From IMG/VR virus record IMGVR_UViG_3300042884_000922, positions 1-57,314 of that record: a DNA stretch of 57,314 nt, one strand, 5' to 3'. The notes under the pieces are model-generated. The model was given only the letters and a program-made list of their open reading frames with translations. It did no database searches and was not told where the DNA came from. Made by a program: the position numbers and the translations under genes. Every line of letters begins with the position of its first letter. Position 1 is the first letter of the stretch. This DNA comes from a virus. Its lineage: Duplodnaviria > Caudoviricetes. Of the stretch, positions 9,394 through 52,938 are shown one piece after another.

Positions 9394-9411
9394 ATAAATA
9401 GTACTTATATG
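9391..9411. promoter_or_regulatory. Overlapping divergent late promoters
   Basis: CATATAAATA-G-TACTTATATG: TATAAATA on + (9393-9400) and TATAAGTA on - (9409-9402); contains the start codons of both gp4 and gp48. Confidence 0.7.
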
Positions 9412-16920: not shown

Positions 16921-16928
16921 TATAAATA
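16921..16928 (+). promoter_or_regulatory. T4-type late promoter TATAAATA
   Basis: Exact motif 6 nt before the gp25 ATG. Confidence 0.78.
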
Positions 16929-37252: not shown

Positions 37253-37253
37253 T

Positions 37254-37865: not shown

Positions 37866-37876
37866 TAGATAGCATA

Positions 37877-37884
37877 TATAAATT
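37877..37884 (+). promoter_or_regulatory. Late-promoter variant TATAAATT at the head of the island
   Basis: 7/8 match, 5 nt before ATG 37890; the same variant and spacing occur at 27346-27353. Confidence 0.5.
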
Positions 37885-37889
37885 ATATT

Positions 37890-38810
37890 ATGAGTTATTA
37901 TTTTGAATTAGTTAAAGATTTGAATTCATCTATTGTGATCGTTGAACACAAAGACACATATAAATTTGTGACATGTAGCGATAAATATACTCCATCTAAA
38001 ATACGCAACGGGGAAAATTTAAGTGACGTTATACACTGCTATGATATAGTCAATGAGAAAATAATTGCAATACCTCTAGTTGAAATTATGCGTCATTATC
38101 ATCATGATATTGATAATATTGATGATAATGACGCAGAATATTTACGCAGAGCAAACATATTGCGTGATAAAATTAAAGGCTATGTCGTTGAAAATGTCAA
38201 TGTGTCATTTACTCAAATATATAATTCTTATGTTAAAACTATCTTTATAGATATCTACAATATTGAAAATACGTTGATTTTAGATTTTTTAAGCCGCACA
38301 AAATTTGCTTTAACACATAATGATTTTGTCTTGCCTGTAGTCCCTGAACATCGAAAACAAAGTGTTATCAATCTATGTAAATCGATAATATCATCTAAAT
38401 TAGATGATATATTATCTGAATTAAATACTATAAAGCAATCTAGTGACGACACTGAAGATATTGCAGACATTGATACAATTATACAAATGTATGAAGATAC
38501 TGTAAATGAAATTGACTATACAAGTTGTAAAAGTTTAATTGATTATTTTAATGTTTATCCTTCGCTATTATTGCCACGCCCAAAAGAAATAGATATATTA
38601 TTAGATGAATTTGGAAAAATATATAACCAAAGCGATGACTATGTTGATTTTATGAATATAGTTGACGATTTGTTGACATATAACGAAATGCGGGAATTAC
38701 TAGATGAATTAAATACTCTTCAACCAACATATAATCAAGAATCTAATGAAATGAATTTAACGAAGTTCAAAGAATATTTAAAGTATAAATTAAATAATGG
38801 ACATAAATGA
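37890..38810 (+). CDS. Hypothetical protein, first gene of the island
   Basis: 306-aa acidic ORF; N-terminus loosely resembles the WYL_2-like protein at 1408; remainder helical. Confidence 0.7.
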   Translation: MSYYFELVKDLNSSIVIVEHKDTYKFVTCSDKYTPSKIRNGENLSDVIHCYDIVNEKIIAIPLVEIMRHYHHDIDNIDDNDAEYLRRANILRDKIKGYVVENVNVSFTQIYNSYVKTIFIDIYNIENTLILDFLSRTKFALTHNDFVLPVVPEHRKQSVINLCKSIISSKLDDILSELNTIKQSSDDTEDIADIDTIIQMYEDTVNEIDYTSCKSLIDYFNVYPSLLLPRPKEIDILLDEFGKIYNQSDDYVDFMNIVDDLLTYNEMRELLDELNTLQPTYNQESNEMNLTKFKEYLKYKLNNGHK

Positions 38811-39828
38811 TTTTAGCGTACACTCTTTTGATGTTGACTATTCTACACCAAGAAATAACAGAGCAAAGCTAGACACAGGATTTCATTGCAATTATAAATG
38901 CGAATTTTGCTATTATCTGAATCATCTGCATCTCAAGACTTCGTTTGAAAAGATAAGAGAGCGAGTTGACTATATACGTGCATACGGCATAACCCAGATT
39001 GATCTTTCTGGTGGAGAAAGCTCTATACACAAAGACTGGTTCCAGATACTCGACTATTGCAACTCTAAATTTGAGCATATAAGCTGTCTTAGCAATGGAT
39101 CTGCATTTTCGAATGAAAAATTTTTAGTGCAGTCGAAACAACACGGACTAAAAGAGGTGTTGTTTAGTCTGCATGGCTATAACGAAGAAGTGCATGACTC
39201 TATAGTTGGTAAAGTTGGTGCATGGAAAAAGATACATTCTGCTATAGCTTATTGTAAAAAACACGATATACGAGTTCGAATAAACTGCACAGTCTATCAA
39301 AAAAACTATAGTGGTTTAGAGAGTTATGCAGAAGTTATAAAAAACATTGATCCATTTGAAGTTAACTTTTTAACACTCAATCATTGGGATGATTCGAGTA
39401 CATTTGAACCAATAGATGACTATGTCGCGCTTACTGACGCTATAAAGGGGTGTATTGATCTTATAAAGGATCAGATACGTCTAATTAATGTGCGCTACAC
39501 ACCTTATTGCTTTATGGTTGGTTATGAAAAGTATGTATGCAATCACTATCAGCACGTCTATGACATATATGATTGGAATAAAGAAATATATAACGAAACT
39601 TTAGATGTTTCTAAAACATATAATGACAAAGAAAAGATAGATTTAGGATATACTGCTGCGAAGGAAGAAAGATTGCGAACCTATAAAAAACCAATAGTGT
39701 GCATCCGTTGCAAATATTTTAATATATGTGATGGCATAGAAAAACAATCAAACGTAAAAGTATTGCCAGTTCGTGGTAAAAAAATAACTGACGTAAATTA
39801 CTATAGAAAAGATTTTTATGACATATAA
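38797..39828 (+). CDS. Radical SAM enzyme 1 (C-terminal CxxCx5C)
   Basis: CNYKCEFC, LSGGES, PYC and CIRCKYFNICDG. Confidence 0.9.
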   Translation: MDINDFSVHSFDVDYSTPRNNRAKLDTGFHCNYKCEFCYYLNHLHLKTSFEKIRERVDYIRAYGITQIDLSGGESSIHKDWFQILDYCNSKFEHISCLSNGSAFSNEKFLVQSKQHGLKEVLFSLHGYNEEVHDSIVGKVGAWKKIHSAIAYCKKHDIRVRINCTVYQKNYSGLESYAEVIKNIDPFEVNFLTLNHWDDSSTFEPIDDYVALTDAIKGCIDLIKDQIRLINVRYTPYCFMVGYEKYVCNHYQHVYDIYDWNKEIYNETLDVSKTYNDKEKIDLGYTAAKEERLRTYKKPIVCIRCKYFNICDGIEKQSNVKVLPVRGKKITDVNYYRKDFYDI

Positions 39829-40726
39829 TGGAGAAAATATTGTCAGTTGCGGAATAAAAAATTATAATTTTAAAACATTTACTTGGAAACTTATAGATGT
39901 ATGTAATCAGCAATGTTCGTATTGCAATGAAGGATTTGGGTCAGAACAATTTAGACCAAAATCTTCTTTTTTTAAAGACGAGAAACAACTTACATCATAT
40001 AAAAATGTTTTAAAGATTCTTAAGTTACGTTCTATCGGAAAATTTGAAGTGGATATTATAGGAGGAGAACCTACTTTGCATCCAAATATACACGATATAT
40101 TATTTAATATTAATTCTATAGAAAATTGTGAAGAAATAAGTTTACTAACTAATTTGAAAAAACCTTTTTCATTTTTTGAAAAATTTAATGATGAAAAATA
40201 TAATAAGCTATTATTTTGTCCATCAATTCACTTTGAATACTACACTCCAGAATTATTAGATAAATGCATTAAAATAAATAATTTTAAATATACTAAAATA
40301 ATCCCTATAGTTATGTTACATGATAATCCTAAGTATTGGGATAATATGGAAATTTTTATTAGCAAACTAATAGAATATAATGTAGAATATACTATATCAT
40401 TTATAAATTCGTGCTATGATTATATAGTAAATTATACTCCAGAATTCTATTCTAGATTTAATAAATTTTTTACTTATGATGATAACAAATATCTATTTAA
40501 TAATAAACTACTTCTTGATAAATATGATATACATTCCAATCAATTGATGAATTTTACGGGTTGGAGATGCAAACCTTGTCGTTATATTATAAAGCATACT
40601 GGAGAAATATCAAATGCATGTACCGGGAAATCATTTAGTTTTATTAATAATGATTCATTTATAACATGTGGTGTTGATAAATGTGGATGCAATATACAAT
40701 GGAACTATGAAAAATATAAACCATAA
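39818..40726 (+). CDS. Radical SAM enzyme 2 (twitch-like Cys-rich C-terminus)
   Basis: CNQQCSYC, IIGGEPTLHP, FTGWRC...NAC...TCGVDKCGC. Confidence 0.9.
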   Translation: MTYNGENIVSCGIKNYNFKTFTWKLIDVCNQQCSYCNEGFGSEQFRPKSSFFKDEKQLTSYKNVLKILKLRSIGKFEVDIIGGEPTLHPNIHDILFNINSIENCEEISLLTNLKKPFSFFEKFNDEKYNKLLFCPSIHFEYYTPELLDKCIKINNFKYTKIIPIVMLHDNPKYWDNMEIFISKLIEYNVEYTISFINSCYDYIVNYTPEFYSRFNKFFTYDDNKYLFNNKLLLDKYDIHSNQLMNFTGWRCKPCRYIIKHTGEISNACTGKSFSFINNDSFITCGVDKCGCNIQWNYEKYKP

Positions 40727-41687
40727 GTTTCTTAGCTTAGATAATAGCTATGACTTGTATCTAACAATGACTTGGGTACATGACCACAATCATGGCATAT
40801 GTGGTCATGTCTATGAAATAATAGACTATTATCTTTTACTGAGTAAAAAATTTAAAGTAGGTATATTGATATGCGAAGATATGACATGGCAAATGTTTGA
40901 ATCTTGTATTCGATCAAAATACTCTCTTGATGAAAGCACTATTTGTTGCATAAAAAATGATATTACTTTTTGTAATCGACCAAAATGGGTACTTGGACTG
41001 GATACAAACATTTTGTTTGTTGATGGAGGTCTACTAAATTCAATTGCAGCGTTTGGCGTAAACTTGATGGTTAAAAATATATTTTCTTTTAAGTGTAATC
41101 CAGATGATACACACTACAATCTGCCTTATAAAAATATAACTCTATTGCAAGACAATCGTGTATATGATGATAAAGATTCTGAAACTGCAATACAATACAT
41201 AAAAAAGATAGGGTTTAGATACTATAAAGAATATGACTCCGTAAAAACAGATACAGCTCTGCTTTATTGCACTACAAATTGTAAAAAACTATGCAACGTT
41301 TCCATACTAGACATAGTTTTTGAATATGGTTTTAAAAACTATATGCTGCTCACAAATGACCGTGAACAGTATGCATCGTTGTCAAACAGTTTTAAGCAGA
41401 TAAGTTTTCCAACTATGCCTGTAGAAGATATTTTTCAAAAATTTGATAGCTACATCTATACTCCTACAGGAGGAGGTATTACAACTCGAAAGTTTGACTG
41501 CAGTCCACGATTTATAGTTGAATGTGCTCACTATGGAAAAAATGTCATCTATCATGCAATAGATCACGATTATTTAGAGATTGACCGTGGTTTAAAATGG
41601 AGAAGATATGATATAGAAAACAATCTTAAAGGTTTATATCTAGATGATTCTGATGAGCTTATAGATATACTATATGATCGGCTTTGA
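40707..41687 (+). CDS. Putative GT-B fold glycosyltransferase
   Basis: C-terminal FDCSPRFIVECAHYGKNVIY matches the GT-B (D/E)x7E...G.PVI donor-binding helix; N-terminal Gly loop HGICGH. Confidence 0.55.
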   Translation: MKNINHKFLSLDNSYDLYLTMTWVHDHNHGICGHVYEIIDYYLLLSKKFKVGILICEDMTWQMFESCIRSKYSLDESTICCIKNDITFCNRPKWVLGLDTNILFVDGGLLNSIAAFGVNLMVKNIFSFKCNPDDTHYNLPYKNITLLQDNRVYDDKDSETAIQYIKKIGFRYYKEYDSVKTDTALLYCTTNCKKLCNVSILDIVFEYGFKNYMLLTNDREQYASLSNSFKQISFPTMPVEDIFQKFDSYIYTPTGGGITTRKFDCSPRFIVECAHYGKNVIYHAIDHDYLEIDRGLKWRRYDIENNLKGLYLDDSDELIDILYDRL

Positions 41688-42696
41688 AAATAGAGTAACA
41701 TCATTTGAAATGATACCCCACTCAGAGTGGTTTGACTATGATTTAAAGGTTACATTAAAGCCTACATTTAAATGTAATCATAAATGTTGGTTTTGCACAG
41801 AATATGATAATTCTACAAAATCATGGACAAAAGAGCAGTGTGATCTGGTGCTCCAAAAATTAAAGGATATACCACAAAGCAAAAAGCGTATATTTTTTTA
41901 TTTTTATGGTGGTGAACCTACACTCAGTAAACATTGGGAATATCTAAACTATCGACTTGTTGAAATTTTCAAAGATCGCGAACTTTTTATACAAACACAA
42001 ACAAATCTTAGTCTCAAGGCAGAACGATTAGAGAGGTTTTTACAGCGCATAAACACTATAAAATCTGACTCACATAAGATTGATATTTGTAGTAGTTATC
42101 ACCTAAATAAACAGCGCGTGAATGAGTTTGTAGAAAAGATGCATATATGTGATCGCTACAACTCTTTAGGTTTTTGTTTTTTTAGTACTGAATTGTTGCA
42201 TAAAGAACAGACTTTACGAGAAATACAATCTATCATTGATGCGTATCCTTCTAAATTAAAGATGCGATTTACTGAAATATATAATCTACAATATAGAAAT
42301 ATTCCAGAATATGCCGAGTATTTAACGGATTCGTATTTACTTGGAGATGATCATGGTAAGAGTTTGGAATTTCGATATTGGCTAAAATATTATCCAGAAT
42401 TACGACAATATTTTGAAAAAGCATGGGACTTTAAAGTAAATGATCAGATTTTTAATTTTTCTGAAGTGTCTGCATACAATATTCATATGAAATTTAAGTT
42501 TATGAAATGTGAATGTGGAGTTAAAAATATGGTTATTGATCATAATTTAAAAGTATATCATTGTAACGATGATTTTTATAACAATAGAAATATTACGAAT
42601 CTATCAGACTTAAATTTAGAATGCTATTTAAATAAATCAGTTAGATGTCTAAATAATGCGTGTTATGATGGACTCGATCATAAAAAAATATTATGA
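41674..42696 (+). CDS. Radical SAM enzyme 3
   Basis: CNHKCWFC, FYGGEPTL, QTN, SSYH, FKFMKC...YHC...RCLNNAC. Confidence 0.9.
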   Translation: MIGFENRVTSFEMIPHSEWFDYDLKVTLKPTFKCNHKCWFCTEYDNSTKSWTKEQCDLVLQKLKDIPQSKKRIFFYFYGGEPTLSKHWEYLNYRLVEIFKDRELFIQTQTNLSLKAERLERFLQRINTIKSDSHKIDICSSYHLNKQRVNEFVEKMHICDRYNSLGFCFFSTELLHKEQTLREIQSIIDAYPSKLKMRFTEIYNLQYRNIPEYAEYLTDSYLLGDDHGKSLEFRYWLKYYPELRQYFEKAWDFKVNDQIFNFSEVSAYNIHMKFKFMKCECGVKNMVIDHNLKVYHCNDDFYNNRNITNLSDLNLECYLNKSVRCLNNACYDGLDHKKIL

Positions 42697-43313
42697 TAAG
42701 TATATTGATACCAACTCATAGACGACCTCTTTTATTTAAACGGTGTATTAGTAGTGTACTAAATCAAATTACTGATATACAATATGAAATTTTAGTTAAT
42801 AATGATAGTCATGATATAGAAGAAATTTATGATGATAGAATTAATATTAAATATTTTTATAACAAATATTCAGATTTATCTTTAGTTTACAAATCCCTGT
42901 TTGATGCAGCAAAATATCCATATATTTTTTATCTAGAAGATGATGACTATATGCTTCCAAATTTTTTTACGCATATAGATTTTTCTGTTGACATAAATTT
43001 TTGTGAATATATAAGTTTACCTCATATTCAAGAAAATACTCAAATTGCATTATATCGTCAAAAAATTAATAGAAAATATGCACATTATATTAATGCTAAA
43101 AATTTTATAACCAATGCTAATATGGAATATTTTCAACTGTCGCAATTGTGTGCATTTAGGAAAAGTTTATTAAATGAATTTCCAACTGGTAATAATATCG
43201 AAAATGATTTGTTGCTTTTTAAGAATATAAGTAAAAATGCGTCATCTTTTAATTATATTCCTAAAAAATTATGGGTGCAAACTACACATGGAGGAGATAA
43301 TATTAGTTTTTAA
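42693..43313 (+). CDS. Glycosyltransferase family 2 (GT-A)
   Basis: ISILIPTHRR...CISSVLNQ...YEILVNND...YLEDDD (DxD)...END. Confidence 0.85.
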   Translation: MISILIPTHRRPLLFKRCISSVLNQITDIQYEILVNNDSHDIEEIYDDRINIKYFYNKYSDLSLVYKSLFDAAKYPYIFYLEDDDYMLPNFFTHIDFSVDINFCEYISLPHIQENTQIALYRQKINRKYAHYINAKNFITNANMEYFQLSQLCAFRKSLLNEFPTGNNIENDLLLFKNISKNASSFNYIPKKLWVQTTHGGDNISF

Positions 43314-43314
43314 T

Positions 43315-44274
43315 ATGGAATATATTGAACAATTTAGAATACCTAGTAAAGAACCAGCATCTGGTTCTTATGGTTTATCACATTCCTTTCGCCTGCACTG
43401 GGATATTAATACTATATGTGATAAAAATTGTTTTTATTGCTATGCACGTGAGCAATTAAAATGGAATGAACTGTCATCAAAACCAATATTAGATAATATA
43501 CTCGAACAGTTAAAAAATATCAATAAACCGTTAGAGGTTATTTTATTGGGTGGAGAACCATCAATGCATCCGTTATATTTCTATGTGTTGCGCGAATTAG
43601 AAAAAATTGATCATTTAAAATGTAGTGCTGTATTGAGTAATTGTGGCAAAACAGTAAACTATAAATGGATTGACCGTCATTCACAGTTTAAAAAGTTTTG
43701 GTTTAATTTTTCTTTTCATCCGTCTGAAACAAATGATCTCGATGATTATACGAGTAAAATATTATATGCAAAAAAACAAGGTTATAATGTACTCGTTCAC
43801 GTGTTATTAGTGGGTCATGCTTGGGACGAAAAAATTTCACATATAGTAAATTTCTGTCATGACAATAATATACACATGAAACCAAACGTGTTGTATACGC
43901 CAAAAGATAGTAGTGACTATCTAAATAAGTCTGAAAAATATAAGCAATGGATCTCTAAGTATAGTGATAAATTTGAGAAATATTTGTATTTCTCAAAAAA
44001 ACAATTGGAAAGAAATATTCCAGGAAATCAAACACTTCAAAATTTAATATTAGATAAAGACTATATTTTGTTAAATGATATAGACGTCTATCTAAATGAT
44101 TTAAATAAATTTAAAGGTTGGAAATGTTTACAGAATAATTATGTCGTTGAAGGTTCAAATAATGCAAAAATTATGAGAATGTGCGATAATACGCAAACTG
44201 GTGAATATATGATATGTCCGCTTGAACGCTGTATGTGTCAAGGATTACTTACTAATGAAAAATTTAAAATATAA
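43315..44274 (+). CDS. Radical SAM enzyme 4
   Basis: CDKNCFYC, LLGGEPSMHP, FSFHP, FKGWKC...RMC...ICPLERCMC; ATG 43315 follows the GT2 stop. Confidence 0.9.
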   Translation: MEYIEQFRIPSKEPASGSYGLSHSFRLHWDINTICDKNCFYCYAREQLKWNELSSKPILDNILEQLKNINKPLEVILLGGEPSMHPLYFYVLRELEKIDHLKCSAVLSNCGKTVNYKWIDRHSQFKKFWFNFSFHPSETNDLDDYTSKILYAKKQGYNVLVHVLLVGHAWDEKISHIVNFCHDNNIHMKPNVLYTPKDSSDYLNKSEKYKQWISKYSDKFEKYLYFSKKQLERNIPGNQTLQNLILDKDYILLNDIDVYLNDLNKFKGWKCLQNNYVVEGSNNAKIMRMCDNTQTGEYMICPLERCMCQGLLTNEKFKI

Positions 44275-46122: not shown

Positions 46123-46125
46123 ATA
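46118..46125 (+). promoter_or_regulatory. T4-type late promoter TATAAATA inside the enzyme island
   Basis: Exact motif in one of the few intergenic gaps, 13 nt before ATG 46139; local AT richness lowers its significance. Confidence 0.55.
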
Positions 46126-46138
46126 AAATATCATCCAT

Positions 46139-46750: not shown

Positions 46751-47838
46751 TGAATTATATTGCTACAAAATTAGAAAATATAAAATCAATAAGAGGAATT
46801 AATTCATTAGATCATTTTTCTATAGAAATCCAATCTACTACTCGGTGTAATTATAAATGTCATTATTGTACAGATTTAAGAATTAACGAAAATTATAATG
46901 TTATTTTTAATAAAGAGAACGTTAAAAATTTATTATTATCAATAAAAAAAATATTTAACAAAAAAATACATATTTTTATATATGGCGGTGAACCTACATT
47001 ATATCCAGATTTATTAAATTTAATAAATAGCATAACTGAAGTTTTAGAAAATGAAGACGTTATTTACATAGCATCAAATCTAAGTATTAGTGAAAAACGA
47101 TTAATAGAATTTTCAAATAATATAAAGCATAAAAAATATGTAAAATTTAGTGTTAGTTATCATAGTACTGAGTGTAAAGATTTAAAAAAATTAATTAATA
47201 AATGTTTATATCTTAAACAAAATAATTTGTTATTAGATATAAATGTAATGTATAATTCTAAAATCAATTCTTTAACTACATTTAATTTACTATGTTTGCT
47301 TTTTGGCAAACATATGTGTAATATAGAACCGCTTTTTAACAGTAGAATAGATCAAAGTATCGTAGACAATAATAACAGCCACTTAGAAATAGATTATATT
47401 CACGATAAGTTTAATATTGATCAATTAGAAAAATTAAGTAAATTTACATATTCAAAAAATATAATTTATTCTGATTATAATGATAATACTACATATATAA
47501 GTAGAGGAGAACTTTGGCACGACAGAAAAAATAATTTTTATGGAATGTCATGTGAAGTTTCTAAATGGAAATTACATATTGATTGGTATGGAGACACATA
47601 TAGTTGTTTTAATCAACAATTTTCAAATAATAAACCACTTTTTAATATTAATGAAACTGGGATTGATTATGAAACCATATTAAAAAATACTAAATGTATT
47701 GTTTGCCCTTTTAATATTTGTTTTCATGATATACATATTAAAAAAGAATTTACAAATGATTCTACAAAACCAATGATTCTCAATAGATTTTTCGGTACAA
47801 AACAATATAAGACTTCTAGGAAAACACATGTTACATGA
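46750..47838 (+). CDS. Radical SAM enzyme 7
   Basis: CNYKCHYC, IYGGEPTLYP, ASN, VSYH, FYGMSC...YSC...CIVCPFNIC. Confidence 0.9.
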   Translation: MNYIATKLENIKSIRGINSLDHFSIEIQSTTRCNYKCHYCTDLRINENYNVIFNKENVKNLLLSIKKIFNKKIHIFIYGGEPTLYPDLLNLINSITEVLENEDVIYIASNLSISEKRLIEFSNNIKHKKYVKFSVSYHSTECKDLKKLINKCLYLKQNNLLLDINVMYNSKINSLTTFNLLCLLFGKHMCNIEPLFNSRIDQSIVDNNNSHLEIDYIHDKFNIDQLEKLSKFTYSKNIIYSDYNDNTTYISRGELWHDRKNNFYGMSCEVSKWKLHIDWYGDTYSCFNQQFSNNKPLFNINETGIDYETILKNTKCIVCPFNICFHDIHIKKEFTNDSTKPMILNRFFGTKQYKTSRKTHVT

Positions 47839-48505
47839 ACTAATTAATTTTTCTAAAGCCAATAGTTTATCACATATACCATCGGCTTTATCGATGCTTG
47901 ATTATATCAGCGTTTTATTTGAAAATAAACATATAGTTCCATTTAGAGATAAAATTGCGCTAGGAAAACCATTTGGTTCTCAAGCATATTATTTAGTATG
48001 GAAACATTGTGGTTATTTAGATAATATTGAAAATCTTTCAATTGGCGTAAAACACACTGAAATACCATTTGTTAATTTTAGTGAAGAGACTATGGGAAAC
48101 GCTTTAGGAGTTGCAGCAGGAATTGCGCATACCACATATAATAAAGTGTATGTCAACTTAAGTGATGCTGCTCTTCAAATGGGTTCAACTCTTGAAGCTA
48201 TTGCATATATTGGTGCAAAGCAATTAAAAAATATAGTAGTTACAGTTGATTTTAATCAAATGCAAGTTACTGGAAAAACTAATGATATAATTTGTATAAA
48301 ACCAATTTCAAATCTATTTAAAAACTATGGTTGGCAGGTGATTGATGTAGACGGACACGATAAAAACAAATTGCAGTTAGCATTTGATAACATTCATTCA
48401 AATAGAAATACACCATTAGTTTATTTTTGTCATACAATTAAAGGACATGGCATAGATTATATGGAGACTGATCCAATAACTTGGCATTATAAATTATTAG
48501 TATGA
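47828..48505 (+). CDS. Transketolase-like N-terminal (ThDP diphosphate-binding) subunit
   Basis: HIPSALS, MGNALGVAAGIA, SDAALQMG...EA...VDFNQMQ (variant GDG..N motif), VDGHD, TIKGHG...WH. Confidence 0.85.
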   Translation: MLHELINFSKANSLSHIPSALSMLDYISVLFENKHIVPFRDKIALGKPFGSQAYYLVWKHCGYLDNIENLSIGVKHTEIPFVNFSEETMGNALGVAAGIAHTTYNKVYVNLSDAALQMGSTLEAIAYIGAKQLKNIVVTVDFNQMQVTGKTNDIICIKPISNLFKNYGWQVIDVDGHDKNKLQLAFDNIHSNRNTPLVYFCHTIKGHGIDYMETDPITWHYKLLV

Positions 48506-48981
48506 GAAATTCACTAGATAAATTTTTAAGTCGGTATGATAATCCCAACTTATATTTTATGCATGCTGATATGTGGAACTTTCCATTATTTAAAAATAAA
48601 TATCCACACCGCTGTATAAATGTTGGTGTACAGGAAACTAATATGATTAATATTGCTGCTGGTTTAGCGAGTCAGGGTAAAACAGTGATTGTCTACGGAG
48701 TAGCTGGATTTGTCTACCAGCGTGCATACGAACAGTTAAAATTTAGCGTAACACATTTTGGAAAGAGTGTTACGCTGGTAAATGCTGGAGCAAATGGATG
48801 TTATAATAAATGTGGAGCAGGTCATATTCCTGATGATGACTACACACTTATGGATGCATTAAAAATAAATAAATATGAACCTCAAACGCGTCGCGAATTT
48901 ATTCGTTGTTTAAAAGATTGTATAAGAAATAAACAAACTAACTTTATACGCTTAGGTTGGGATAATTGTGTATGGAAATAA
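48502..48981 (+). CDS. Transketolase-like pyrimidine-binding subunit, without the C-terminal domain
   Basis: HAD...YPHRCINVGVQETNMINIAAGLA...F..QRAYEQLK...GAGH...FIRLG, then stop. Confidence 0.85.
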   Translation: MRNSLDKFLSRYDNPNLYFMHADMWNFPLFKNKYPHRCINVGVQETNMINIAAGLASQGKTVIVYGVAGFVYQRAYEQLKFSVTHFGKSVTLVNAGANGCYNKCGAGHIPDDDYTLMDALKINKYEPQTRREFIRCLKDCIRNKQTNFIRLGWDNCVWK

Positions 48982-49547
48982 ATTTAGTAACTGGCTCTCG
49001 TGGTTTTTTATGTGGTCATTTGTGTAAGCATTTGCCTAATACTCTTGATTACGGAAATGTCTTGAATTATTATGATATCAATTATGTAGATGCGGTCTAT
49101 CATTTTGCTAGTCCAAGTGATGATTATGATTTTGCCGATTCTAATAAAACTATAGACACTATAGTAAATGGTACAATTAATATGCTAAAAGTTGCTCAAA
49201 AAAATAATGCGAAATTTATTTTTGCCAGTACGCTTGGAGTAGAATCCCCAAATAATGTGTATTGTTATAGTAAGTTATTGATGGAAAAATATATAATAGA
49301 TAACTATGATAACTATGTTATATTACGCGTTCCTCGTGTTTATGACAAGAGTCGTAAAAAGGGATTAATGAAAAAATTAAGATTGAATATGGTTCCACAA
49401 TCAGACAATAATAACACAGTTGACTATATTACACTAGATTCTTTTATTAATCAAACTCTTGCGGCGTCAAAGAATAAAAATATTGTGTATAGTTATATGA
49501 GTATGTCATCAAATACGATTGGAGAAATATATAAATTATTTGCATGA
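48972..49547 (+). CDS. Short NAD-dependent epimerase/dehydratase (SDR)
   Basis: LVTGSRGFLC, VYHFAS, FAST, YCYSK (YxxxK), ILRVPRVY. Confidence 0.8.
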   Translation: MEINLVTGSRGFLCGHLCKHLPNTLDYGNVLNYYDINYVDAVYHFASPSDDYDFADSNKTIDTIVNGTINMLKVAQKNNAKFIFASTLGVESPNNVYCYSKLLMEKYIIDNYDNYVILRVPRVYDKSRKKGLMKKLRLNMVPQSDNNNTVDYITLDSFINQTLAASKNKNIVYSYMSMSSNTIGEIYKLFA

Positions 49548-50398
49548 AAATTTTAATTACTGGTGGAGATGGTTTTATAGGCAAAAATCTTATAGAACAA
49601 TGGACAAGTTTTTATGACATTACTTCAATTGACAAATTGTCTGGTATTGATATTTTATCTGACTCGCCAGCATTAGAATATGCAATAATAAATTGTGATA
49701 TAATTTATCATTTAGCAAGTCCTGTTGGAATAAACTTAATAGATCGACACCAAGAATCGTTTTTAAATGATATGTTAAAAATAAATCTTAAGGTATTTAA
49801 CCTTGTAAAAAAATATGATAAAAAAATTGTATTTTTTAGCACGTCTGAAGTCTATAAAGATAATGTTGCAGCGTCTGAAAATGATGATTTAATAATTGGA
49901 AATCCAGAATATCCACGATGGGGTTATTCCAGCGGAAAATTAACATCAGAATTTTTATGTAAAAGTCTGTGTAAAAAATCAATTATAATTCGTCCATTTA
50001 ATATTTGTGGTAAATATGATAAAAAGGGAGTGCTGTACCAGTTTATCAAAAATATTAAAAATAATCTAAATGTTATTATTCATGGAGATGGTCATCAAAC
50101 TCGTTCTTTTTGTGATGTGCGAGACCTTATTGAATTTTTAAATATTATAAACCACTTAGATTTTTCTGGAGAAATATATAATATTGGAAATAGTAATAAT
50201 TTTATTTCTATGCATAATTTAGCTAAATTATGCATATCACTTGCCAATTCTAATGTTGAAATAGATTATGTAGATTATAAACACTGCTTTTCAGAAAAGC
50301 ATAGAGACATTTATAATAGACGTCCCAATTGCATGAAAATGAATGCTTTATATGTGCCAAAATATAATATTACTGATATAATACAAAATTTGTTATGA
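49544..50398 (+). CDS. NAD-dependent NDP-sugar epimerase/decarboxylase (extended SDR, UXS/ArnA-like)
   Basis: ILITGGDGFIG, YHLAS, STSEVY, PRWGYSSGK, RPFN, GDGHQTRSFC, YNIGN, RRP. Confidence 0.88.
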   Translation: MKILITGGDGFIGKNLIEQWTSFYDITSIDKLSGIDILSDSPALEYAIINCDIIYHLASPVGINLIDRHQESFLNDMLKINLKVFNLVKKYDKKIVFFSTSEVYKDNVAASENDDLIIGNPEYPRWGYSSGKLTSEFLCKSLCKKSIIIRPFNICGKYDKKGVLYQFIKNIKNNLNVIIHGDGHQTRSFCDVRDLIEFLNIINHLDFSGEIYNIGNSNNFISMHNLAKLCISLANSNVEIDYVDYKHCFSEKHRDIYNRRPNCMKMNALYVPKYNITDIIQNLL

Positions 50399-51042
50399 GA
50401 AAAATATTAATATTTGCTGCTCATCCTGATGATATTGAATTTGGAATGGGTGGAACTTTAGCAAAATTAACACAATCATATCATATTACCGTTTGTATTT
50501 TTTGCAAAGGGAATAAACCCGGGCGTGAGGATGTAGAAAATGATAGATTACGTGCATTTAATTTTAATAAAAAACAATTAAAAATAAATGAAGTTATACA
50601 ACATTCATATTCTGATGTTTCTCTTGACACAATTCCATTTATAGAAATATCATCCTTGTGTAAAAAAATAGTAGACGAAGTTAAACCGTCAATAGTATTT
50701 ACACAATATTCGGGGGATATACATCAGGATCATAGAATAGTTTCTCAAGCAACTAGAATCGCATGTCGTCCAAGAGAATCATGTAGCGTACATGAACTAT
50801 ACGAATATTCAATACCGGGAAGTACTGAATGGTCGTTTACTGATACAAAATTTAATACATTTTTTGATATTTCTAACTATACTAGTATAAAATATGAATG
50901 CATATCACGATATAAAACTGAAGTAAAAACTGAGATTGACCCGTTAAATTTAGAATATATAAAACACAGAGATCTTTATTATGGTGGATTGTTTGGATAT
51001 AGAGCAGCTGAACCGTTTATAAACATTTTTTCAAAGCGATGA
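50395..51042 (+). CDS. PIG-L/LmbE-family N-deacetylase
   Basis: AAHPDDIEFGMGG, DIHQDH and C-terminal AEPF. Confidence 0.9.
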   Translation: MRKILIFAAHPDDIEFGMGGTLAKLTQSYHITVCIFCKGNKPGREDVENDRLRAFNFNKKQLKINEVIQHSYSDVSLDTIPFIEISSLCKKIVDEVKPSIVFTQYSGDIHQDHRIVSQATRIACRPRESCSVHELYEYSIPGSTEWSFTDTKFNTFFDISNYTSIKYECISRYKTEVKTEIDPLNLEYIKHRDLYYGGLFGYRAAEPFINIFSKR

Positions 51043-51761
51043 AAAAGCAAAAAATTATTATTGCTGGATATGGAGAAATAGGTCAAGCAATACACCAATT
51101 TTATAATCAGCATGATTATGAATTAAGTATAGTCGATATTGACGTATCATTATCTCAATGTCATTGCGACATCTTGCATATTTGTTTTCCATATTCTGAT
51201 AATTTTATAGTTGAAGTTGAAAAATATATTTCATTATTTTCTCCTCATCTCGTTATAATACACAGCACAATATATCCTGGAACATCAGAAAATATAAAGT
51301 TTAATAATTTAGTATACTCGCCAGTTGTTGGTGTACATCCACATCTTCATGAGTGCATAAAGATATTTAAAAAATTCGTTGCTGGAAAAACTAAGCAGTC
51401 GATCATTGAGGCGTGCAATCATTTTTCTGAACTTGGAATTGCATCTACCATGTTTAAATGCTGCAAATCGCTTGAAACCGCAAAGACTCTATGTACACTC
51501 TATTATGGTATGTGCATAGCTTTTCATGATGAAGTGCATGATTTATGTAAAAAAGAATCTATTGACTATTCAGAAGTAATGACTCTTTGGAATTCTGAAT
51601 ATAATTCTGGCTATAAAAAAATTGGAAAAGATAACGTAATACGACCAGTGCTGTCTCCAGCTCATGGAAAAATTGGAGGTCATTGCGTTATACCAAATGC
51701 CGAGATGATCGCTTCATATTTTAACAGTCCAATAATAGACTATGTTTTGAGATTAAAATGA
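51039..51761 (+). CDS. UDP-glucose/GDP-mannose dehydrogenase family protein, truncated
   Basis: IAGYGEIG, IHSTIYPGT, YSP, ETAK, IGGHCV (catalytic Cys); ends before the C-terminal UDP-binding domain. Confidence 0.8.
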   Translation: MKKQKIIIAGYGEIGQAIHQFYNQHDYELSIVDIDVSLSQCHCDILHICFPYSDNFIVEVEKYISLFSPHLVIIHSTIYPGTSENIKFNNLVYSPVVGVHPHLHECIKIFKKFVAGKTKQSIIEACNHFSELGIASTMFKCCKSLETAKTLCTLYYGMCIAFHDEVHDLCKKESIDYSEVMTLWNSEYNSGYKKIGKDNVIRPVLSPAHGKIGGHCVIPNAEMIASYFNSPIIDYVLRLK

Positions 51762-52288
51762 AACCGACTCTAATGATACATGAATTTCAAGAAAGGTATC
51801 TTGATCTTCCGTTAGAAAAATATACACTTACGTTTGACGATGGGTTGTATAGTCAATATGCATTCGTCGACGAGTTGTTGAGAATAAACACAGAAAAGAT
51901 ATTTTTTATTAGCAGTGATATAGTCTGTCCTGAAGATCAGACACAAGACACATCTTTAGTTTGTTGTAGAGATGCTCATGAAAAGGCATTCGTTGGAGAC
52001 TATAGCAACTATATGAAATGGTCACAAATAGCGCATATAGATGGACTGGATCAATGTCAGATAGGATGTCATGGACATAAACATATTCATAATATAGTTT
52101 CTGATCCTTTAGTGATGCTTAAAGACAGTCGAAGAATGGTGCAAACATTTAATTGTCATTTGGGTTATGTTCCAGATGGTTTTTGCTTTCCATATAATAT
52201 AGAGTCTCTTATATATAAAACAATACTACAAAAGTATGGGTTTAAGCATTTTTATGGAGGTGAGAGAATAGATATAGATGAATTATGA
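51758..52288 (+). CDS. Polysaccharide deacetylase (CE4/NodB-like)
   Basis: LTFDDG, YMKW, IGCHGHKH, FCFPYN. Confidence 0.85.
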   Translation: MKPTLMIHEFQERYLDLPLEKYTLTFDDGLYSQYAFVDELLRINTEKIFFISSDIVCPEDQTQDTSLVCCRDAHEKAFVGDYSNYMKWSQIAHIDGLDQCQIGCHGHKHIHNIVSDPLVMLKDSRRMVQTFNCHLGYVPDGFCFPYNIESLIYKTILQKYGFKHFYGGERIDIDEL

Positions 52289-52905
52289 ATATAGATGCAA
52301 TTACAGTATCGATAGACTATAGCGACTATCTTGAACAGATAGTTAGCAACAAAGATAAATTTGATCGTTGGCTTATAGTTACGCACTGGAGTGATAAAAA
52401 GACCATAGAAGTGTGCAAAAACCACAATTTAGAATATATTCTAAGCAAAGAAATCTATGCAAACGGGTCGTGTTTTGCAAAGAGTCGCGCGATCAATGAA
52501 GCTATACATTACCTCAATCCTCAAGATTGGTTGTGTGTTGTCGATAGCGATTCATTGTTACCAAATGATTTTAGAACTGTTGTCGACTCCGGTGTAAATG
52601 ATAAAGAAGCCATATATGGTTGCATAAGATATACTGTAGAAGGTGTTAAAAAAGTTGAAAATTTTGATGGTTCATATGTCTATCCTGCTGGGTTTTTTCA
52701 ATTATGGCATACGTCTAAATTTTGTGACTATTATACAGGAGAAATGACTAATGCCGAAGGTGATATTCAACACAAAAATAGGTTTGAAAAGTCTCAACTT
52801 TTACCATTAAAACTTGTTGACCTTCAAAAAGAAACGGGATTTAAACAAAATTGGTATGGTCGTGGGCCAATAGGCAAAACCCGGCATAAACTTTATAGAT
52901 TATAA
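52285..52905 (+). CDS. Glycosyltransferase (GT-A fold)
   Basis: AITVSIDYSDYL...FAKSRAIN...WLCVVDSD (DxD)...GFFQLW. Confidence 0.75.
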   Translation: MNIDAITVSIDYSDYLEQIVSNKDKFDRWLIVTHWSDKKTIEVCKNHNLEYILSKEIYANGSCFAKSRAINEAIHYLNPQDWLCVVDSDSLLPNDFRTVVDSGVNDKEAIYGCIRYTVEGVKKVENFDGSYVYPAGFFQLWHTSKFCDYYTGEMTNAEGDIQHKNRFEKSQLLPLKLVDLQKETGFKQNWYGRGPIGKTRHKLYRL

Positions 52906-52938
52906 ATACATATAAATACATATAGATACATATAATAT
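52901..52938 (+). repeat. 10-bp tandem array of late-promoter motifs
   Basis: TATAAATACA TATAAATACA TATAGATACA TATAATAT directly before ATG 52939. Confidence 0.85.

Follow-up and report, generated by a model that had tools for sequence, protein, structure and literature searches.

A radical SAM and sugar-tailoring gene island in a T4-like lake phage and its possible role in modifying a virion protein

Gene content and organization of the island

The stretch of DNA analyzed here (the window, 57,314 nt) belongs to a T4-like phage from lake water. In an independent metagenome run from a lake (X2), contigs showed 0 differences to it and bridged positions 37175-38136 and 46729-53901; since they span both island junctions, the window assembly is not chimeric. 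The ORF listing revealed an island of exactly 19 plus-strand ORFs from 37890 to 52905, with 17 of the 18 junctions overlapping and the remaining one a 16-nt gap, as the first-pass annotation had described (19 co-oriented, mostly overlapping genes). The island and its surroundings contain the following features.

27360..32897 (+): VrlC-type giant baseplate protein (Pfam DUF4815, 156 bits; tblastn)
33114 (+): TATAAATA motif, 6 nt upstream of the fibreA start
33128..37252 (+): fibreA, tail fibre with C-terminal S74 intramolecular chaperone (Peptidase_S74, tail-fibre PHROGs)
37254..37865 (+): g203, small variable protein heading the cassette, with fn3-like beta part (HMM family)
37877..37884 (+): TATAAATT late-promoter-like motif, 5 nt before the unk1 start
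37890..38810 (+): unk1, acidic protein (11 of 31 loci)
38784..38791 (+): TATAAATT motif, 5 nt before the rSAM1 start
38797..39828 (+): rSAM1, signature radical SAM enzyme of the cassette (Pfam 61.3 bits; phrog_27238, 1.8e-83)
39818..40726 (+): rSAM2 (Pfam 34.6 bits; CX3CX2C at residue 29)
40668..41687 (+): unkGTB, GT-B fold glycosyltransferase (model pLDDT 83; Foldseek and VIA)
41674..42696 (+): rSAM3 (Pfam 41.7 bits; phrog_24890)
42693..43313 (+): GT2a, GT2 (GT-A) glycosyltransferase (Pfam Glycos_transf_2, 41.6 bits; EDDD motif)
43237..44274 (+): rSAM4 (Pfam 35.6 bits; CX3CX2C at residue 61)
44222..45142 (+): rSAM5 (Pfam 26.3 bits, under the 29.5 cut-off; CX3CX2C at residue 39)
45142..46122 (+): rSAM6 (Pfam 46.7 bits; phrog_21308)
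46118..46125 (+): TATAAATA late-promoter-like motif, 13 nt before the unk2 start, at the sole non-overlapping junction
46139..46750 (+): unk2, lowest-GC gene (0.204)
46750..47838 (+): rSAM7 (Pfam 40.5 bits; CX3CX2C at residue 33)
47828..48505 (+): TK_N, ThDP-binding half of a split transketolase (Pfam Transketolase_N, 58.8 bits)
48502..48981 (+): TK_C, pyrimidine-binding half of the split transketolase (Pfam Transket_pyr, 31.5 bits)
48966..49547 (+): SDR1, truncated extended SDR, 193 aa (Pfam Epimerase, 43.3 bits)
49544..50398 (+): SDR2, extended SDR (Pfam 111.2 bits)
50395..51042 (+): PIG-L/LmbE N-deacetylase (Pfam 69.6 bits; AHPDD motif)
51039..51761 (+): shrunken NDP-sugar dehydrogenase-like protein, 240 aa (Pfam 23.2 bits, cut-off 25.4)
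51758..52288 (+): CE4 polysaccharide deacetylase-type enzyme (Pfam 24.4 bits, cut-off 23.1; phrog_26430, 8e-20)
52285..52905 (+): GT2b, probable second GT-A transferase (Glyco_tranf_2_4, 21.9 bits, cut-off 27.5; DSD motif)
52901..52918 (+): two TATAAATA motifs (52901 and 52911) ahead of the next structural gene
52939..57312 (+): large structural protein, context, running off the window (PHROG 'structural protein', Ig-like head decoration)

At superfamily or family level, the Pfam scan and the fold model bear out the gene content originally claimed, with some matches below cut-off. The set comprises seven radical SAM enzymes with CX3CX2C, three transferases (one GT-B, two of GT-A type), the two halves of a mini-transketolase, two SDRs, one shrunken protein resembling NDP-sugar dehydrogenases, two deacetylases (PIG-L and CE4) and two unknowns. 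Pfam Radical_SAM matched seven of the 20 scanned proteins, six of them above the 29.5-bit cut-off, and a scan of the whole record returned the same seven. All carry four to six further cysteines near the C-terminus besides the CX3CX2C near the N-terminus, and none of the seven matched the SPASM Pfam family. The fold neighbours of rSAM1 (601 relatives at E<=1e-10; 47% identity in Campylobacter phages) are mixed, including the peptide maturases SkfB and SuiB and the sugar-nucleotide enzymes BlsE, DesII and viperin. Homologues of rSAM3 occur at 37-38% identity in 11 Campylobacter phage records, and for rSAM6, CP220 as well as the Peredibacter and Halobacteriovorax clusters contain three homologues in tandem.

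The protein encoded at 40668, previously called GT-B-like, has no Pfam match, and its model indeed adopts a GT-B fold, which many GT4/GT41 enzymes match equally well (Z 15.4, rmsd 3.5 over 269 residues). Foldseek and VIA placed it at Z about 15 to PimA, BGluT, TarM, GtfA, BshA and SdgB; the cytoplasmic protein glycosyltransferases GtfA, SdgB, OGT and HMW1C/NGT are among its matches, and the small-molecule or lipid transferases BGluT, BshA, PimA and AviGT4 tie with them at the same Z. Residues 1-19 showed low model confidence and poor alignment, and the real start probably lies downstream of the listed GTG. GT2b, the second of the two GT-A transferases proposed earlier, is weaker than claimed, scoring under its cut-off, with relatives in G001 and L005 alone. 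TK_N is most similar in the PDB to the N-terminal component of the split-chain transketolase 6yak, and TK_C lacks the transketolase C-terminal domain. The Epimerase match of SDR1 covers profile positions 51-184 only. SDR2 is closest to the UDP-glucuronate decarboxylase/ArnA/Pal type (PDB matches Pal, UXS and ArnA), its best NCBIfam score being 80 bits vs a 294 cut-off. The best PDB matches of the PIG-L protein were an LmbE-related protein and BshB. For the 51039 protein, named an NDP-sugar dehydrogenase, the family link held, since iterative HMM searches placed it in a family of 245 aa, the other members of which match PF00984 and PF03721, but its own score is below cut-off and the protein is short. 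Neither unk1 nor unk2 matched a family in Pfam, PHROG or NCBIfam; ESM Atlas was uninformative for unk1, and unk2 has only eight relatives among 5.8 billion proteins.

No island protein contains a hydrophobic or membrane segment (maximum 19-residue Kyte-Doolittle mean 1.54), and Pfam and NCBIfam detected among them neither a lipid-carrier transferase nor a flippase or polymerase, which argues that all steps are cytoplasmic. The late-promoter motifs reported at the start, inside and at the end of the island were recovered at 37877, 46118 and 52901/52911, with an extra one at 38784. TATAAAT(A/T) precedes by 5-20 nt the starts of structural genes, unk1, rSAM1, unk2 and the next structural gene. 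Overall, TATAAATA is no more frequent than expected by chance (10 observed vs 11.9 expected), but its placement does exceed chance: five of the eight plus-strand copies are located at most 30 nt upstream of a plus-strand ORF start, against 2.1% expected (binomial, 2e-7). There was no terminator excess.

Flanking genes, cassette head and distribution in relatives

The protein at 27360..32897 is 34% identical (tblastn) to a Pelagibacter phage HTVC008M gene annotated 'VrlC protein' and, judged by this similarity, is where the host-recognition region begins; the island follows further downstream, at the site of the pelagimyophage "host recognition cluster". An island between two fibre genes had been described. 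The upstream gene fits, fibreA having a Peptidase_S74 match (60.3 bits, residues 1273-1329; Pfam) and tail-fibre PHROGs, but the 1458-aa ORF at 52939 matched only 'structural protein' and Ig-like head-decoration PHROGs and no Pfam family, so that its identity as a fibre is unproven. Its N-terminal 43 residues are common to fibre-region proteins of relatives.

A core of rSAM1, GT-B, GT2, the transketolase halves and SDR/PIG-L/CE4 recurs in 31 IMG/VR contigs, and sugar genes co-occur with radical SAM genes throughout these loci. The unkGTB family is present in 29 of them, GT2a in 25, TK_N in 21, TK_C in 16 and the NDP-sugar dehydrogenase-like family in 16; unk2 was not found in the 31 loci. Accessory genes of the relatives encode an amidinotransferase, DegT aminotransferases, a flavin halogenase, a sulfotransferase and 2OG oxygenases. 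The expectation that the cassette stays next to large fibre genes was not borne out: in eight of the 31 loci the 10 kb upstream hold UvsY, SegE and small basic proteins instead, and in CP220 the genes are scattered.

What does remain with the enzymes is a small variable protein with a partner, which opens 30 of the 31 viral cassettes and all three bacterial ones. In 11 viral loci these are g203 and unk1, always paired; 19 others have X201, accompanied in 15 of the 19 by a cysteine-ladder protein detected by HMM, and the predatory bacteria likewise pair X201 with a cysteine-ladder protein. This ladder protein, present in as many as four tandem copies, has an S74 fibre-chaperone junction at its end, and the ladder also occurs in CP220 gp140, adjoining a TK_C homologue. 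No homology was found between g203 and the cysteine-ladder proteins or between unk1 and X201, and no ladder is encoded in the window, in the 89-kb relative G001 or in five further records (35-88% complete). The g203 family, with no Pfam or PHROG match of its own, was found by HMM in 10 of the 31 loci, with divergent longer forms also in L040 and L054. Its relatives form 109 representative clusters, and the longer ones (468-747 aa) have the N-terminal ~190 residues in common, followed by fn3. This build, a conserved N-terminal module with a hypervariable C-terminus and fn3-like similarity, resembles a modular virion adhesin and makes g203 a candidate acceptor or adhesin. Both g203 and unk1 precede the enzymes even in loci without an upstream fibre gene. 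The loci with this head type form one clade on the rSAM1 tree (support 100/96), so the link to the enzymes represents one inherited arrangement rather than repeated independent association. The low-GC block begins at unk1, whereas g203 has a GC of 0.373, like the phage backbone, and could be merely the last gene of the fibre module.

Possible product and acceptor

We tentatively propose that the island encodes a late pathway in the cytoplasm whose product, an unusual sugar, is attached to a host-recognition protein of the virion. Gene content, superfamily-level folds and families, operon structure, promoter-like motifs, conservation and neighbourhoods are direct observations; for substrates, step order, acceptor and timing we infer the following. 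A late-transcribed, membrane-free enzyme cassette would start from nucleotide sugars of the host, the UDP-GlcNAc and UDP-hexuronate types being the most plausible. The dehydrogenase-like protein, the two SDRs, the split transketolase, transferring two carbons, and the two deacetylases would reshape the sugar, and the seven radical SAM enzymes would tailor it or the product. The GT-B and two GT-A transferases would then, still in the cytoplasm and ahead of virion assembly, attach the product to a protein made by the phage. The likeliest acceptor would be g203, perhaps with unk1 as its partner, and the neighbouring fibres would be second candidates. The virion-glycan reading of the first-pass annotation is thus kept in part: because the small variable head protein stays with the cassette, a virion protein is still the best acceptor candidate, with g203 favoured over the giant fibres. 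Moreover, the cassette is conserved although its carriers differ widely in host or lifestyle, which argues for a target made by the carrier itself.

In favour of a virion protein we counted the enzyme set and tight operon, the GT-B matches to cytoplasmic protein glycosyltransferases, the placement of the late-promoter-like motifs, the 30 of 31 viral cassettes with a variable head protein, the modular-adhesin build of g203 and its position with unk1 ahead of the enzymes where the upstream fibre is missing. Against it we counted the GT-B ties with small-molecule and lipid transferases, the mixed fold neighbours of rSAM1, the single-clade g203-unk1 head with backbone-like GC in g203, the lack of g203-ladder or unk1-X201 homology and the accessory genes of relatives, typical of small-molecule pathways too.

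It is unlikely, in our estimate, that the product is instead a soluble small molecule made in the infected cell and acting on the host, competitors or co-infecting phages, possibly an aminoglycoside-like pseudo-oligosaccharide, a sugar nucleoside, or a thiol or cofactor-like glycoside of low molecular weight. Every enzyme is soluble, a GT-B transferase and PIG-L deacetylase pair makes up the first two steps of the bacillithiol, mycothiol and butirosin pathways, and BshA and BshB are among the best fold and family matches. The accessory genes of relatives point the same way, and a similar cyanophage trio is termed 'antibiotic synthesis genes' in a passage of one paper (PMC12801897). However, Pfam and NCBIfam revealed no cyclitol- or aglycone-forming enzyme, exporter or self-resistance gene in the window, the late-promoter-like motifs and the position in a structural region fit a virion function better, and the constant small variable head protein would be left unexplained. 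Somewhat less probable still is remodelling of the host surface polysaccharide, directly or via altered nucleotide sugars, which would block superinfection or keep progeny from sticking to debris. The island's position downstream of VrlC, equivalent to the published host recognition cluster, for whose glycosyltransferases O-chain modification is proposed in a section of that study (PMC7029224), agrees with it, as do sugar-nucleotide enzymes of O-antigen and capsule-locus types. Yet no membrane protein, polyprenyl-phosphate transferase, flippase, polymerase or ligase was detected among the island proteins (Pfam, NCBIfam), a late burst leaves little time for rebuilding a surface, and the same core occurs in Campylobacter phages, lake and marine phages and predatory bacteria, whose surface glycans need not be alike.

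We consider it improbable that the radical SAM enzymes mainly modify protein, by RiPP-like cross-links or epimerisation in a fibre-type protein, with the sugar genes secondary or separate. Relatives do embed the cysteine-ladder protein among radical SAM genes, SkfB and SuiB are neighbours of rSAM1, and the C-terminal cysteine clusters in all seven enzymes suggest auxiliary clusters; but homologous radical SAM enzymes are kept in the ladder-free window, G001 and five further records, g203 contains a single cysteine and fibreA four, and neither the SPASM result nor the constant company of sugar genes fits. Hypermodification of phage DNA with a sugar-derived group is very improbable. DNA is named as a frequent target of phage glycosyltransferases in part of one source (PMC12619734), and some CP220 homologues sit among the nucleotide-metabolism genes thyX, nrdB and thymidine kinase. 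In CP220, though, G is reported to be fully replaced by 7-amido-7-deazaguanine, the relevant text mentioning no sugar adduct (10.1101/2023.04.13.536721); the window has a gene for ThyX and none for a hydroxymethylase, the promoter-like motifs belong to the late type, and the bacterial clusters accompany a fibre-type protein rather than DNA enzymes.

Comparison with known systems

Radical SAM cassettes in such phages are not new as an observation. They were noted in 2020 in the pelagimyophage host recognition cluster, without a function in the part of the text concerned (PMC7029224), and CP220-like phages have many radical SAM and carbohydrate genes (PMC2853527, PMC3322345). In agreement with the earlier statement that no characterized phage pathway is known with this enzyme set, none of the 20 scanned proteins reached the curated cut-off of any NCBIfam model. 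Nine of the 19 island gene families were found in CP220, and rSAM3 in CPt10. In the Campylobacter Firehammerviruses the core genes are scattered, whereas in the window they are clustered; they are likewise clustered, between housekeeping genes, in the chromosomes of Peredibacter and two Halobacteriovorax.

The island and its genomic setting

The window, a linear contig of 57,314 bases that is about 26% complete according to CheckV, was assigned to a T4-like myovirus on the basis of PHROG and Pfam scans. Its genes include those for ThyX, for a helicase loader and for an ssDNA-binding protein, and the baseplate module is complete (gp5-, gp6-, gp8-, gp25-, gp27- and gp48/54-like proteins). The nearest cultured relatives of its gp6 wedge protein, Methylophilales phage Melnitz, Pelagibacter phage Mosig and cyanomyophages, show only 33-34% identity, and the VrlC-type gene product (1845 aa, DUF4815) is 34% identical to the homologue annotated as VrlC in Pelagibacter phage HTVC008M. 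No near-identical DNA for the island or for positions 12000-33000 was present in 50,697 phage records. The public sequencing runs that contain the island are labelled as lake-water or freshwater metagenomes, and no RNA run was found among the public runs matching its sequence.

Two peculiarities of the baseplate genes were also observed. The gp5-type hub/lysozyme is split into adjacent ORFs (12952-14040 and 14059-15159) matching different parts of phrog_430, with the lysozyme-like region in the N-terminal ORF and a beta-helix-like C-terminal ORF. At 19275-25823 lies a baseplate-associated giant of 2182 aa, with FG-GAP repeats and a short baseplate-wedge match at its N-terminus; a DUF285 protein of an 89-kb relative (G001) has repeated segments in common with it.

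Features of the window referred to in the text
27360-32897: VrlC-type gene
37254-37865: g203, first gene of the cassette head
37890-38810, + strand: unk1, second gene of the cassette head
38797-39828, + strand: rSAM1, the signature radical SAM enzyme
40668-41687, + strand: GT-B protein
42693-43313, + strand: GT2a, glycosyltransferase
45126-45491, - strand: antisense ORF in rSAM6
46139-46750, + strand: unk2
48966-49547, + strand: SDR1
49544-50398, + strand: SDR2
50395-51042, + strand: PIG-L deacetylase
51039-51761, + strand: dehydrogenase-like protein
51758-52288, + strand: CE4 deacetylase
52285-52905, + strand: GT2b, glycosyltransferase candidate

The island (37890-52905) consists of 19 ORFs on the + strand that overlap at 17 of the 18 junctions, and the sole gap, of 16 nt, contains TATAAATA. 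Its GC content is 0.28, compared to 0.37-0.44 outside. Contigs from an independent run show 0 differences over the island and bridge both of its ends, so this sharp drop is real and is no assembly joint. The difference is large at codon positions 1 and 2 (0.324 in the island against 0.441) and small at GC3 (0.194 against 0.242), and the GC3 contrast is absent in the related locus L031. The drop is mostly a matter of amino-acid composition, and recent foreign origin was rejected as its main cause. No tRNA gene was detected in a scan of the window, and the terminator scan returned 8 candidates against 5.0 +/- 2.7 expected, all of them within genes. The antisense ORF in rSAM6 (121 aa, low-complexity and hydrophobic) is in all likelihood a frame opened by chance where the DNA is AT-rich.

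The promoter-like motifs are not above chance in number (10 copies of TATAAATA for 11.9 expected, and 15 of TATAAATT for 13.5 expected in the window). Their placement, by contrast, is above chance: five of the eight + strand copies of TATAAATA lie 30 nt or less upstream of a + strand ORF start, where 2.1% would be expected (binomial 2e-7). A sixth copy, at 9393, is 9 nt ahead of an in-frame ATG; this ATG, at 9410, is the likely start of the tube-cap gene. The GTG start listed for that ORF (9193-10308) is probably an error, and the divergent head-closure gene (8938-9393, - strand) takes in the upstream 200 nt. The variant TATAAATT is found 5 nt before the starts of unk1 (37890), rSAM1 (38797) and the VrlC gene (27360). 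Both motifs agree with the T4 late-promoter consensus, and from this match we infer that the cassette would be expressed late. The sequence TATAAAT(A/T) occurs 5-6 nt before the ATG of six genes (at 16921, 25838, 27346, 33114, 37877 and 38784), with no Shine-Dalgarno-like sequence found between these copies and the ATGs; if the motifs are T4-type late promoters, the transcripts of these six genes would be leaderless or nearly so.

Enzyme families encoded by the island

None of the scanned proteins reached the curated cut-off of any NCBIfam model, and all family assignments are therefore made at the superfamily level. Pfam and PHROG confirmed the gene list proposed by the first-pass annotation, with some qualifications; GT2b (21.9 bits, cut-off 27.5) and the dehydrogenase-like protein fell below the Pfam cut-offs. 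The latter has 240 aa and matches the central domain only (23.2 bits, under 25.4), lacks the C-terminal domain and scores 34.1 against a cut-off of 189.8 in NCBIfam, and is not classed here as a UDP-glucose/GDP-mannose dehydrogenase. Of the two fibre genes proposed to flank the island, the downstream one, an ORF of 1458 aa, is structural and is not shown to be a fibre gene.

All seven radical SAM proteins carry CX3CX2C close to the N-terminus and a C-terminal Cys group. Six of them pass the PF04055 gathering cut-off of 29.5 bits (34.6-61.3) and rSAM5 scores 26.3. No SPASM/twitch domain (PF13186) was detected in the seven at E<=0.01, and NF033640 gave 23-37 bits against a cut-off of 170; an auxiliary cluster is still likely because of the C-terminal Cys groups. 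The core of rSAM1 alone matches the NCBIfam viperin model (60.7 bits), below the 180-bit cut-off for membership, and the sequence matches of rSAM1 in the PDB are confined to residues 30-190; rSAM6 has none in the PDB at E<=0.01. The predicted model of rSAM1 is weak (pLDDT 62.7, with the C-terminus under 50) and too poor for assigning a substrate class. Its fold and sequence neighbours appear mixed, with SkfB (top Foldseek match, E 2.8e-10) and SuiB alongside BlsE, DesII, viperins and MoaA. The sugar-acting enzymes BtrN, NeoN and AprD4, named by the first-pass annotation, are absent among the matches listed from NCBIfam, PDB sequence and Foldseek searches, rSAM1 being the one radical SAM protein that was folded.

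The protein that the first-pass annotation called GT-B-like has no family match, and the sequence profile of its family gave a chance match only against the PDB (E 0.11). Folding it together with five relatives nevertheless bore out the proposed fold: the predicted model (pLDDT 83, pTM 0.85) has two Rossmann-like domains, matches the GT-B fold with a Foldseek probability of 1.00 and superposes (VIA) with Z 15.4 and an rmsd of 3.5 A across 269 residues; over 450 chains reach Z>=8. Enzymes of GT4 and GT41 type, whose acceptors are proteins, lipids and small molecules, tie within 1-2 Z on this model, and acceptor specificity cannot be read from the predicted fold. GT2a belongs to the GT2 (GT-A) type, with 41.6 bits to PF00535 (cut-off 23.3) and an EDDD motif.

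The transketolase is of the split-chain kind, with the ThDP- and pyrimidine-binding domains on separate chains (TK_N and TK_C; 58.8 and 31.5 bits, above the cut-offs). The best PDB match of TK_N is the N-component of a split-chain transketolase, and no island protein has a Pfam match to the transketolase C-terminal domain. In NCBIfam the halves score 91 and 36 bits against cut-offs of 488-575, below the equivalog level. PIG-L (69.6 bits, cut-off 28.2) has the metal-site motif AAHPDD at residues 8-13, and the CE4 match is marginal in Pfam (PF01522, 24.4 bits, cut-off 23.1), with phrog_26430 at 8e-20. SDR2 is an extended SDR (PF01370, 111.2 bits, with GGDGFIG and YSSGK), and SDR1 is truncated to profile positions 51-184. 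No hydrophobic segment was found in any island protein.

Related cassettes and their head genes

The most conserved enzyme is rSAM1, with 601 relatives at E<=1e-10 in a collection of 5.8 billion proteins, at least 120 of them above 50% identity and on contigs of up to 346 kb. Two IMG/VR scans yielded 31 distinct loci, in which ORFs were called within 10 kb on either side and assigned by iterative HMMs; truncation of loci makes the counts below underestimates. The number of radical SAM genes per locus varies from 1, in a truncated locus, to 10.

Families found in the 31 viral loci (undercounted through truncation)
GT-B: 29/31
GT2a: 25/31
TK_N: 21/31
X201 (head gene of ladder-type loci): 19/31
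TK_C: 16/31
SDR: 16/31
Dehydrogenase-like: 16/31
Cysteine ladder: 15/31
S74 domain: 13/31
unk1: 11/31
g203: 10/31
Tryptophan-halogenase-like: 10/31
PIG-L: 6/31
CE4: 5/31
Amidinotransferase-like: 4/31

The gene for a tryptophan-halogenase-like flavoenzyme (Pfam 1e-66), of which the window has no copy, often lies between the transketolase halves (L007:18377-20783 and nine other loci). In the 193-kb contig G002, 2OG oxygenases stand beside the cassette, and the cassette end (L015:10826-12355) carries Fe-S assembly genes (two of IscA type and one IscU/NifU), a sulfotransferase and a cytidylyltransferase; this phage seems to assist the assembly of clusters for its numerous radical SAM enzymes.

Of the 50,697 phage records, rSAM1 matched 16, namely 15 Campylobacter phages and a weak partial match in a "Bacteriophage sp." record, while the GT-B protein matched 15 records and rSAM3 11, all of Campylobacter phages. 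These Campylobacter phages all belong to the CP220-like group II and, the weak partial match aside, are the only cultured ones in the records to match any of the three proteins. In CP220, tblastn at E<1e-6 recovered 9 of the 19 island gene families (rSAM1, rSAM6 in three copies, GT-B, TK_N, TK_C, SDR1, SDR2, PIG-L and CE4), at about 9.9, 66, 71-75, 121.5, 139, 146-148 and 160 kb, and proteins of the related cassettes added matches to an amidinotransferase, to the dehydrogenase-like protein and X201, and to a further three radical SAM genes. Firehammervirus (CP220, CPt10, CP21, IBB_35) is like the window in having an rSAM1 homologue, at 47% identity, as well as rSAM3, rSAM6, the GT-B protein, both transketolase halves, both SDRs, PIG-L and CE4. 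It differs in that the CP220 genes are scattered over at least seven places, whereas those of the window form one operon; CP220 also has a ladder protein, gp140, and an X201 homologue, both missing from the window, and has no match at E<1e-6 to g203, unk1, unk2, GT2a or GT2b. Timms 2010 (PMC2853527) counts 11 radical SAM proteins in CP220 and 12 in CPt10, calls this highly unusual and suggests a metabolic benefit at low oxygen. Carvalho 2012 (PMC3322345) names enzymes of the radical SAM and carbohydrate kinds when listing what is unusual about IBB_35.

Scanning prokaryotes, with each species represented by one genome, gave five loci. Two of them, labelled as MAGs of an archaeon (L054) and of Alphaproteobacteria (L055), resemble binned phage fragments; L054 has the gene order of the window (fibre-g203-unk1-rSAM1-GT-B-GT2), and the rSAM1 of L055 clusters with CP220 in the rSAM1 tree (support 100/100). 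The other three are in chromosomes of predatory bacteria.

Clusters in predatory bacteria
L056:4451-20717: Peredibacter sp. (complete genome), between housekeeping genes
L057 and L058: two Halobacteriovorax clusters, between housekeeping genes

The housekeeping neighbours are cytochromes, and chorismate synthase with aroB-aroA. The bacterial clusters start with two radical SAM genes, a ladder protein, X201, a GT-B paralogue, GT-B and rSAM1, continue with three rSAM6 genes, a further radical SAM gene and an amidinotransferase-like gene, and end with DegT, PIG-L, SDR and CE4. Their ladder protein, of 183-199 aa, has the motif MACSG.HC in its N-terminal part and the cysteine ladder in its C-terminal part; in Peredibacter its end reads YSDKRLK, and a 93-aa S74 ORF comes next. 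The module carried by Peredibacter and Halobacteriovorax is therefore not phage-specific and, judged by its genes, is present outside phages in a form again built around a predicted fibre-type protein.

One of two head types, which are mutually exclusive, was found in 30 of the 31 viral loci. In the first, a cysteine-ladder protein of 170-260 aa lies among the radical SAM genes (15/31 loci) and is followed by X201, which stands before one or more GT-B genes. The N-terminal part of the ladder protein varies and leads into the ladder itself, made of 3-10 C-x-C-N-C-N-Y heptads, directly after which "SD.RLK" opens a Peptidase_S74 intramolecular chaperone domain; in some ladder loci the chaperone is a separate small ORF.

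Cysteine-ladder proteins
L007:6813-7601, L033:5972-6730, L043:6861-7511, L051:4805-5482, L039:6166-6678, and others: small fibre-type proteins
L045:3955-6519: four tandem copies
CP220 record 160932-162536 (L053:2433-4037): gp140 with the same ladder, directly after the TK_C homologue

The window has the second head type, g203 with unk1, and has no X201. A regular-expression search of six frames of the window and of G001 found no cysteine ladder, and a degenerate DNA pattern allowing 3 mismatches found none in the records of five relatives (0/5; records 35-88% complete); no Cys-repeat precursor of RiPP type lies in or beside the cluster of the window. No homology was detected between the unk1 and X201 families (hhalign probability 0.3%) or between the g203 and cysteine-ladder families (0.07%). 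In the maximum-likelihood tree of rSAM1 (34 rows, four near-duplicates left out) the g203/unk1 type is a single clade (support 100/96), so that the switch between heads is to be taken as a single event and not as repeated evidence.

The g203 family is conserved in its N-terminal part (...S.N.LRNWF.DYVG...SDF.G.TI.G...) and hypervariable in the rest, with lengths of 200-515 aa in the loci. A profile search of 1.84 billion representatives gave 109 clusters at E<=0.001, most of 200-250 aa. Several relatives of 468-747 aa match over the first ~190 residues only and have an fn3 domain beyond, and the weaker matches are repeated fn3-type domains of giant proteins. By its sequence, g203 is constructed like a modular surface or adhesin protein, of backbone-like composition, and we infer that it is a virion component. 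The ESM Atlas provided no usable lead for unk1 or g203 (scores under 0.9, TM under 0.5 on a poor Atlas model).

Eight loci of the window's clade lack a fibre gene in the 10 kb upstream, and g203 and unk1 still precede rSAM1; the upstream neighbours there include UvsY, a SegE-type endonuclease, a DUF6267-cytidylyltransferase protein and small basic proteins. The IMG/VR survey thus showed that the gene set does not keep to the neighbourhood of large fibres, the point raised by the first-pass annotation; what adjoins the gene set is a small protein of fibre or adhesin type.

Possible products and comparison with known systems

Several observations argue that the acceptor would be a protein of the carrier's own making: the enzyme set is purely cytoplasmic, it occupies a structural region with late-type motifs, it is conserved across carriers whose hosts share no surface chemistry, and a small variable protein is constant at its head. 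Protein-directed glycosylation is the reading we favour, with a little less than an even chance of being correct, and it has its counter-weights in the GT-B fold, which ties acceptor classes, the mixed neighbours of rSAM1, the backbone-like g203 and a head association that is one inherited state. The accessory enzymes of the relatives would suit a secondary metabolite equally well; we consider a small-molecule product unlikely. Should the product be a small molecule after all, lytic phages would be carrying a large biosynthetic pathway, itself an unusual finding. Remodelling of the host surface is distinctly unlikely. Modification of the host O-chain was proposed for pelagimyophages by Zaragoza-Solas et al. 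2020 (PMC7029224), and this proposal is weakened here, since a membrane step is absent altogether and the carriers span a very wide range of hosts. Cross-linking of a protein without any glycan is improbable. As in sactipeptide/ranthipeptide RiPP systems (SkfB), relatives of the window encode a Cys-repeat protein amid numerous radical SAM genes; RiPP precursors are short peptides, whereas the "precursors" of the relatives are fibre-type proteins of 170-260 aa with an S74 chaperone, and the window has neither a Cys-rich precursor nor a SPASM Pfam match in its enzymes. To DNA modification we attach very little credence.

Protein-directed glycosylation can be placed in a wider scheme, which we propose tentatively and regard as rather doubtful: the island would be one form of a mobile protein-maturation machine that modifies a small hypervariable host-recognition protein and has swappable heads. 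Its carriers would include T4-like phages from lakes and the sea as well as Campylobacter phages and predatory bacteria. With about a dozen soluble enzymes for radical SAM chemistry, sugar building and glycosyl transfer, it would equip the host-recognition protein with an unusual glycan tailored by radical chemistry and, in the ladder form, with cross-links as well, and a swap of the head protein (g203/unk1 or cysteine ladder/X201) would retarget the same chemistry. If so, a new class would be added to the post-translational modifications that receptor-binding proteins undergo, and the long-unexplained radical SAM genes of CP220-like phages, including the 11-12 noted in CP220 and CPt10 in 2010, would be accounted for. 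For abundant aquatic phages and Campylobacter biocontrol phages, a cassette that modifies a host-recognition protein would mean that adsorption and host range hinge on chemistry invisible in the protein sequence, which receptor-binding predictions and engineered fibres would miss; radical SAM enzymology would join virion biogenesis, and at least seven uncharacterised radical SAM families would gain a testable substrate context. The question is directly testable, because cultured Firehammerviruses and cultured predatory bacteria share the core.

Text searches of the literature for the cysteine-ladder heptad strings found no paper, and searches of limited coverage found none on the product, the acceptor, the ladder protein, the link between lake/marine phages, Campylobacter phages and predatory bacteria, or the modification of phage fibres by radical SAM enzymes with a Cys-rich protein in this system. 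The island type is already in print as an annotation-level remark (PMC2853527, PMC3322345, PMC7029224). A cyanophage paper (PMC12801897) lists a DegT, amidinotransferase and radical SAM trio as unexplained "antibiotic genes".

A positional parallel is the host recognition cluster of pelagimyophages, a hypervariable block in the structural region after VrlC, and the window has VrlC directly upstream. That cluster is defined as lying between VrlC and the neck gene gp14, and the window ends before any gp14. The freshwater genomes of the host recognition cluster paper (PMC7029224) are said there to lack radical SAM proteins, in contrast to the window, which has them and comes from lake water by its run labels.

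Mycobacteriophage glycosyltransferases encoded beside structural genes decorate virion proteins in the cytoplasm (Freeman et al. 2023, as summarised in PMC12619734). No other established precedent for the favoured reading is known. The mycobacteriophage systems reportedly combine glycosyltransferases with no radical SAM enzyme, transketolase or deacetylase, and are said to target the C-termini of capsid and tail-tube proteins.

Systems in which GlcNAc transfer is followed by PIG-L deacetylation (BshA/BshB, MshA/MshB, BtrM/BtrD) are also similar, as the predicted GT-B fold is near BshA (Z 14.4) and the best family match of PIG-L is BshB1 (72.8 bits, cut-off 182.5); the sugar-acting radical SAM enzymes DesII and BlsE are among the neighbours of the predicted rSAM1 fold. 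All family scores behind the likeness to the BshA/MshA/BtrM and DesII/BlsE types are far under the curated cut-offs and, unlike in the GlcNAc-transfer/PIG-L systems, an aglycone pathway is absent from the window. We regard the island as a phage sugar or virion-modification island in a T4-like host-recognition region, with an enzyme set unlike that of any characterised system.
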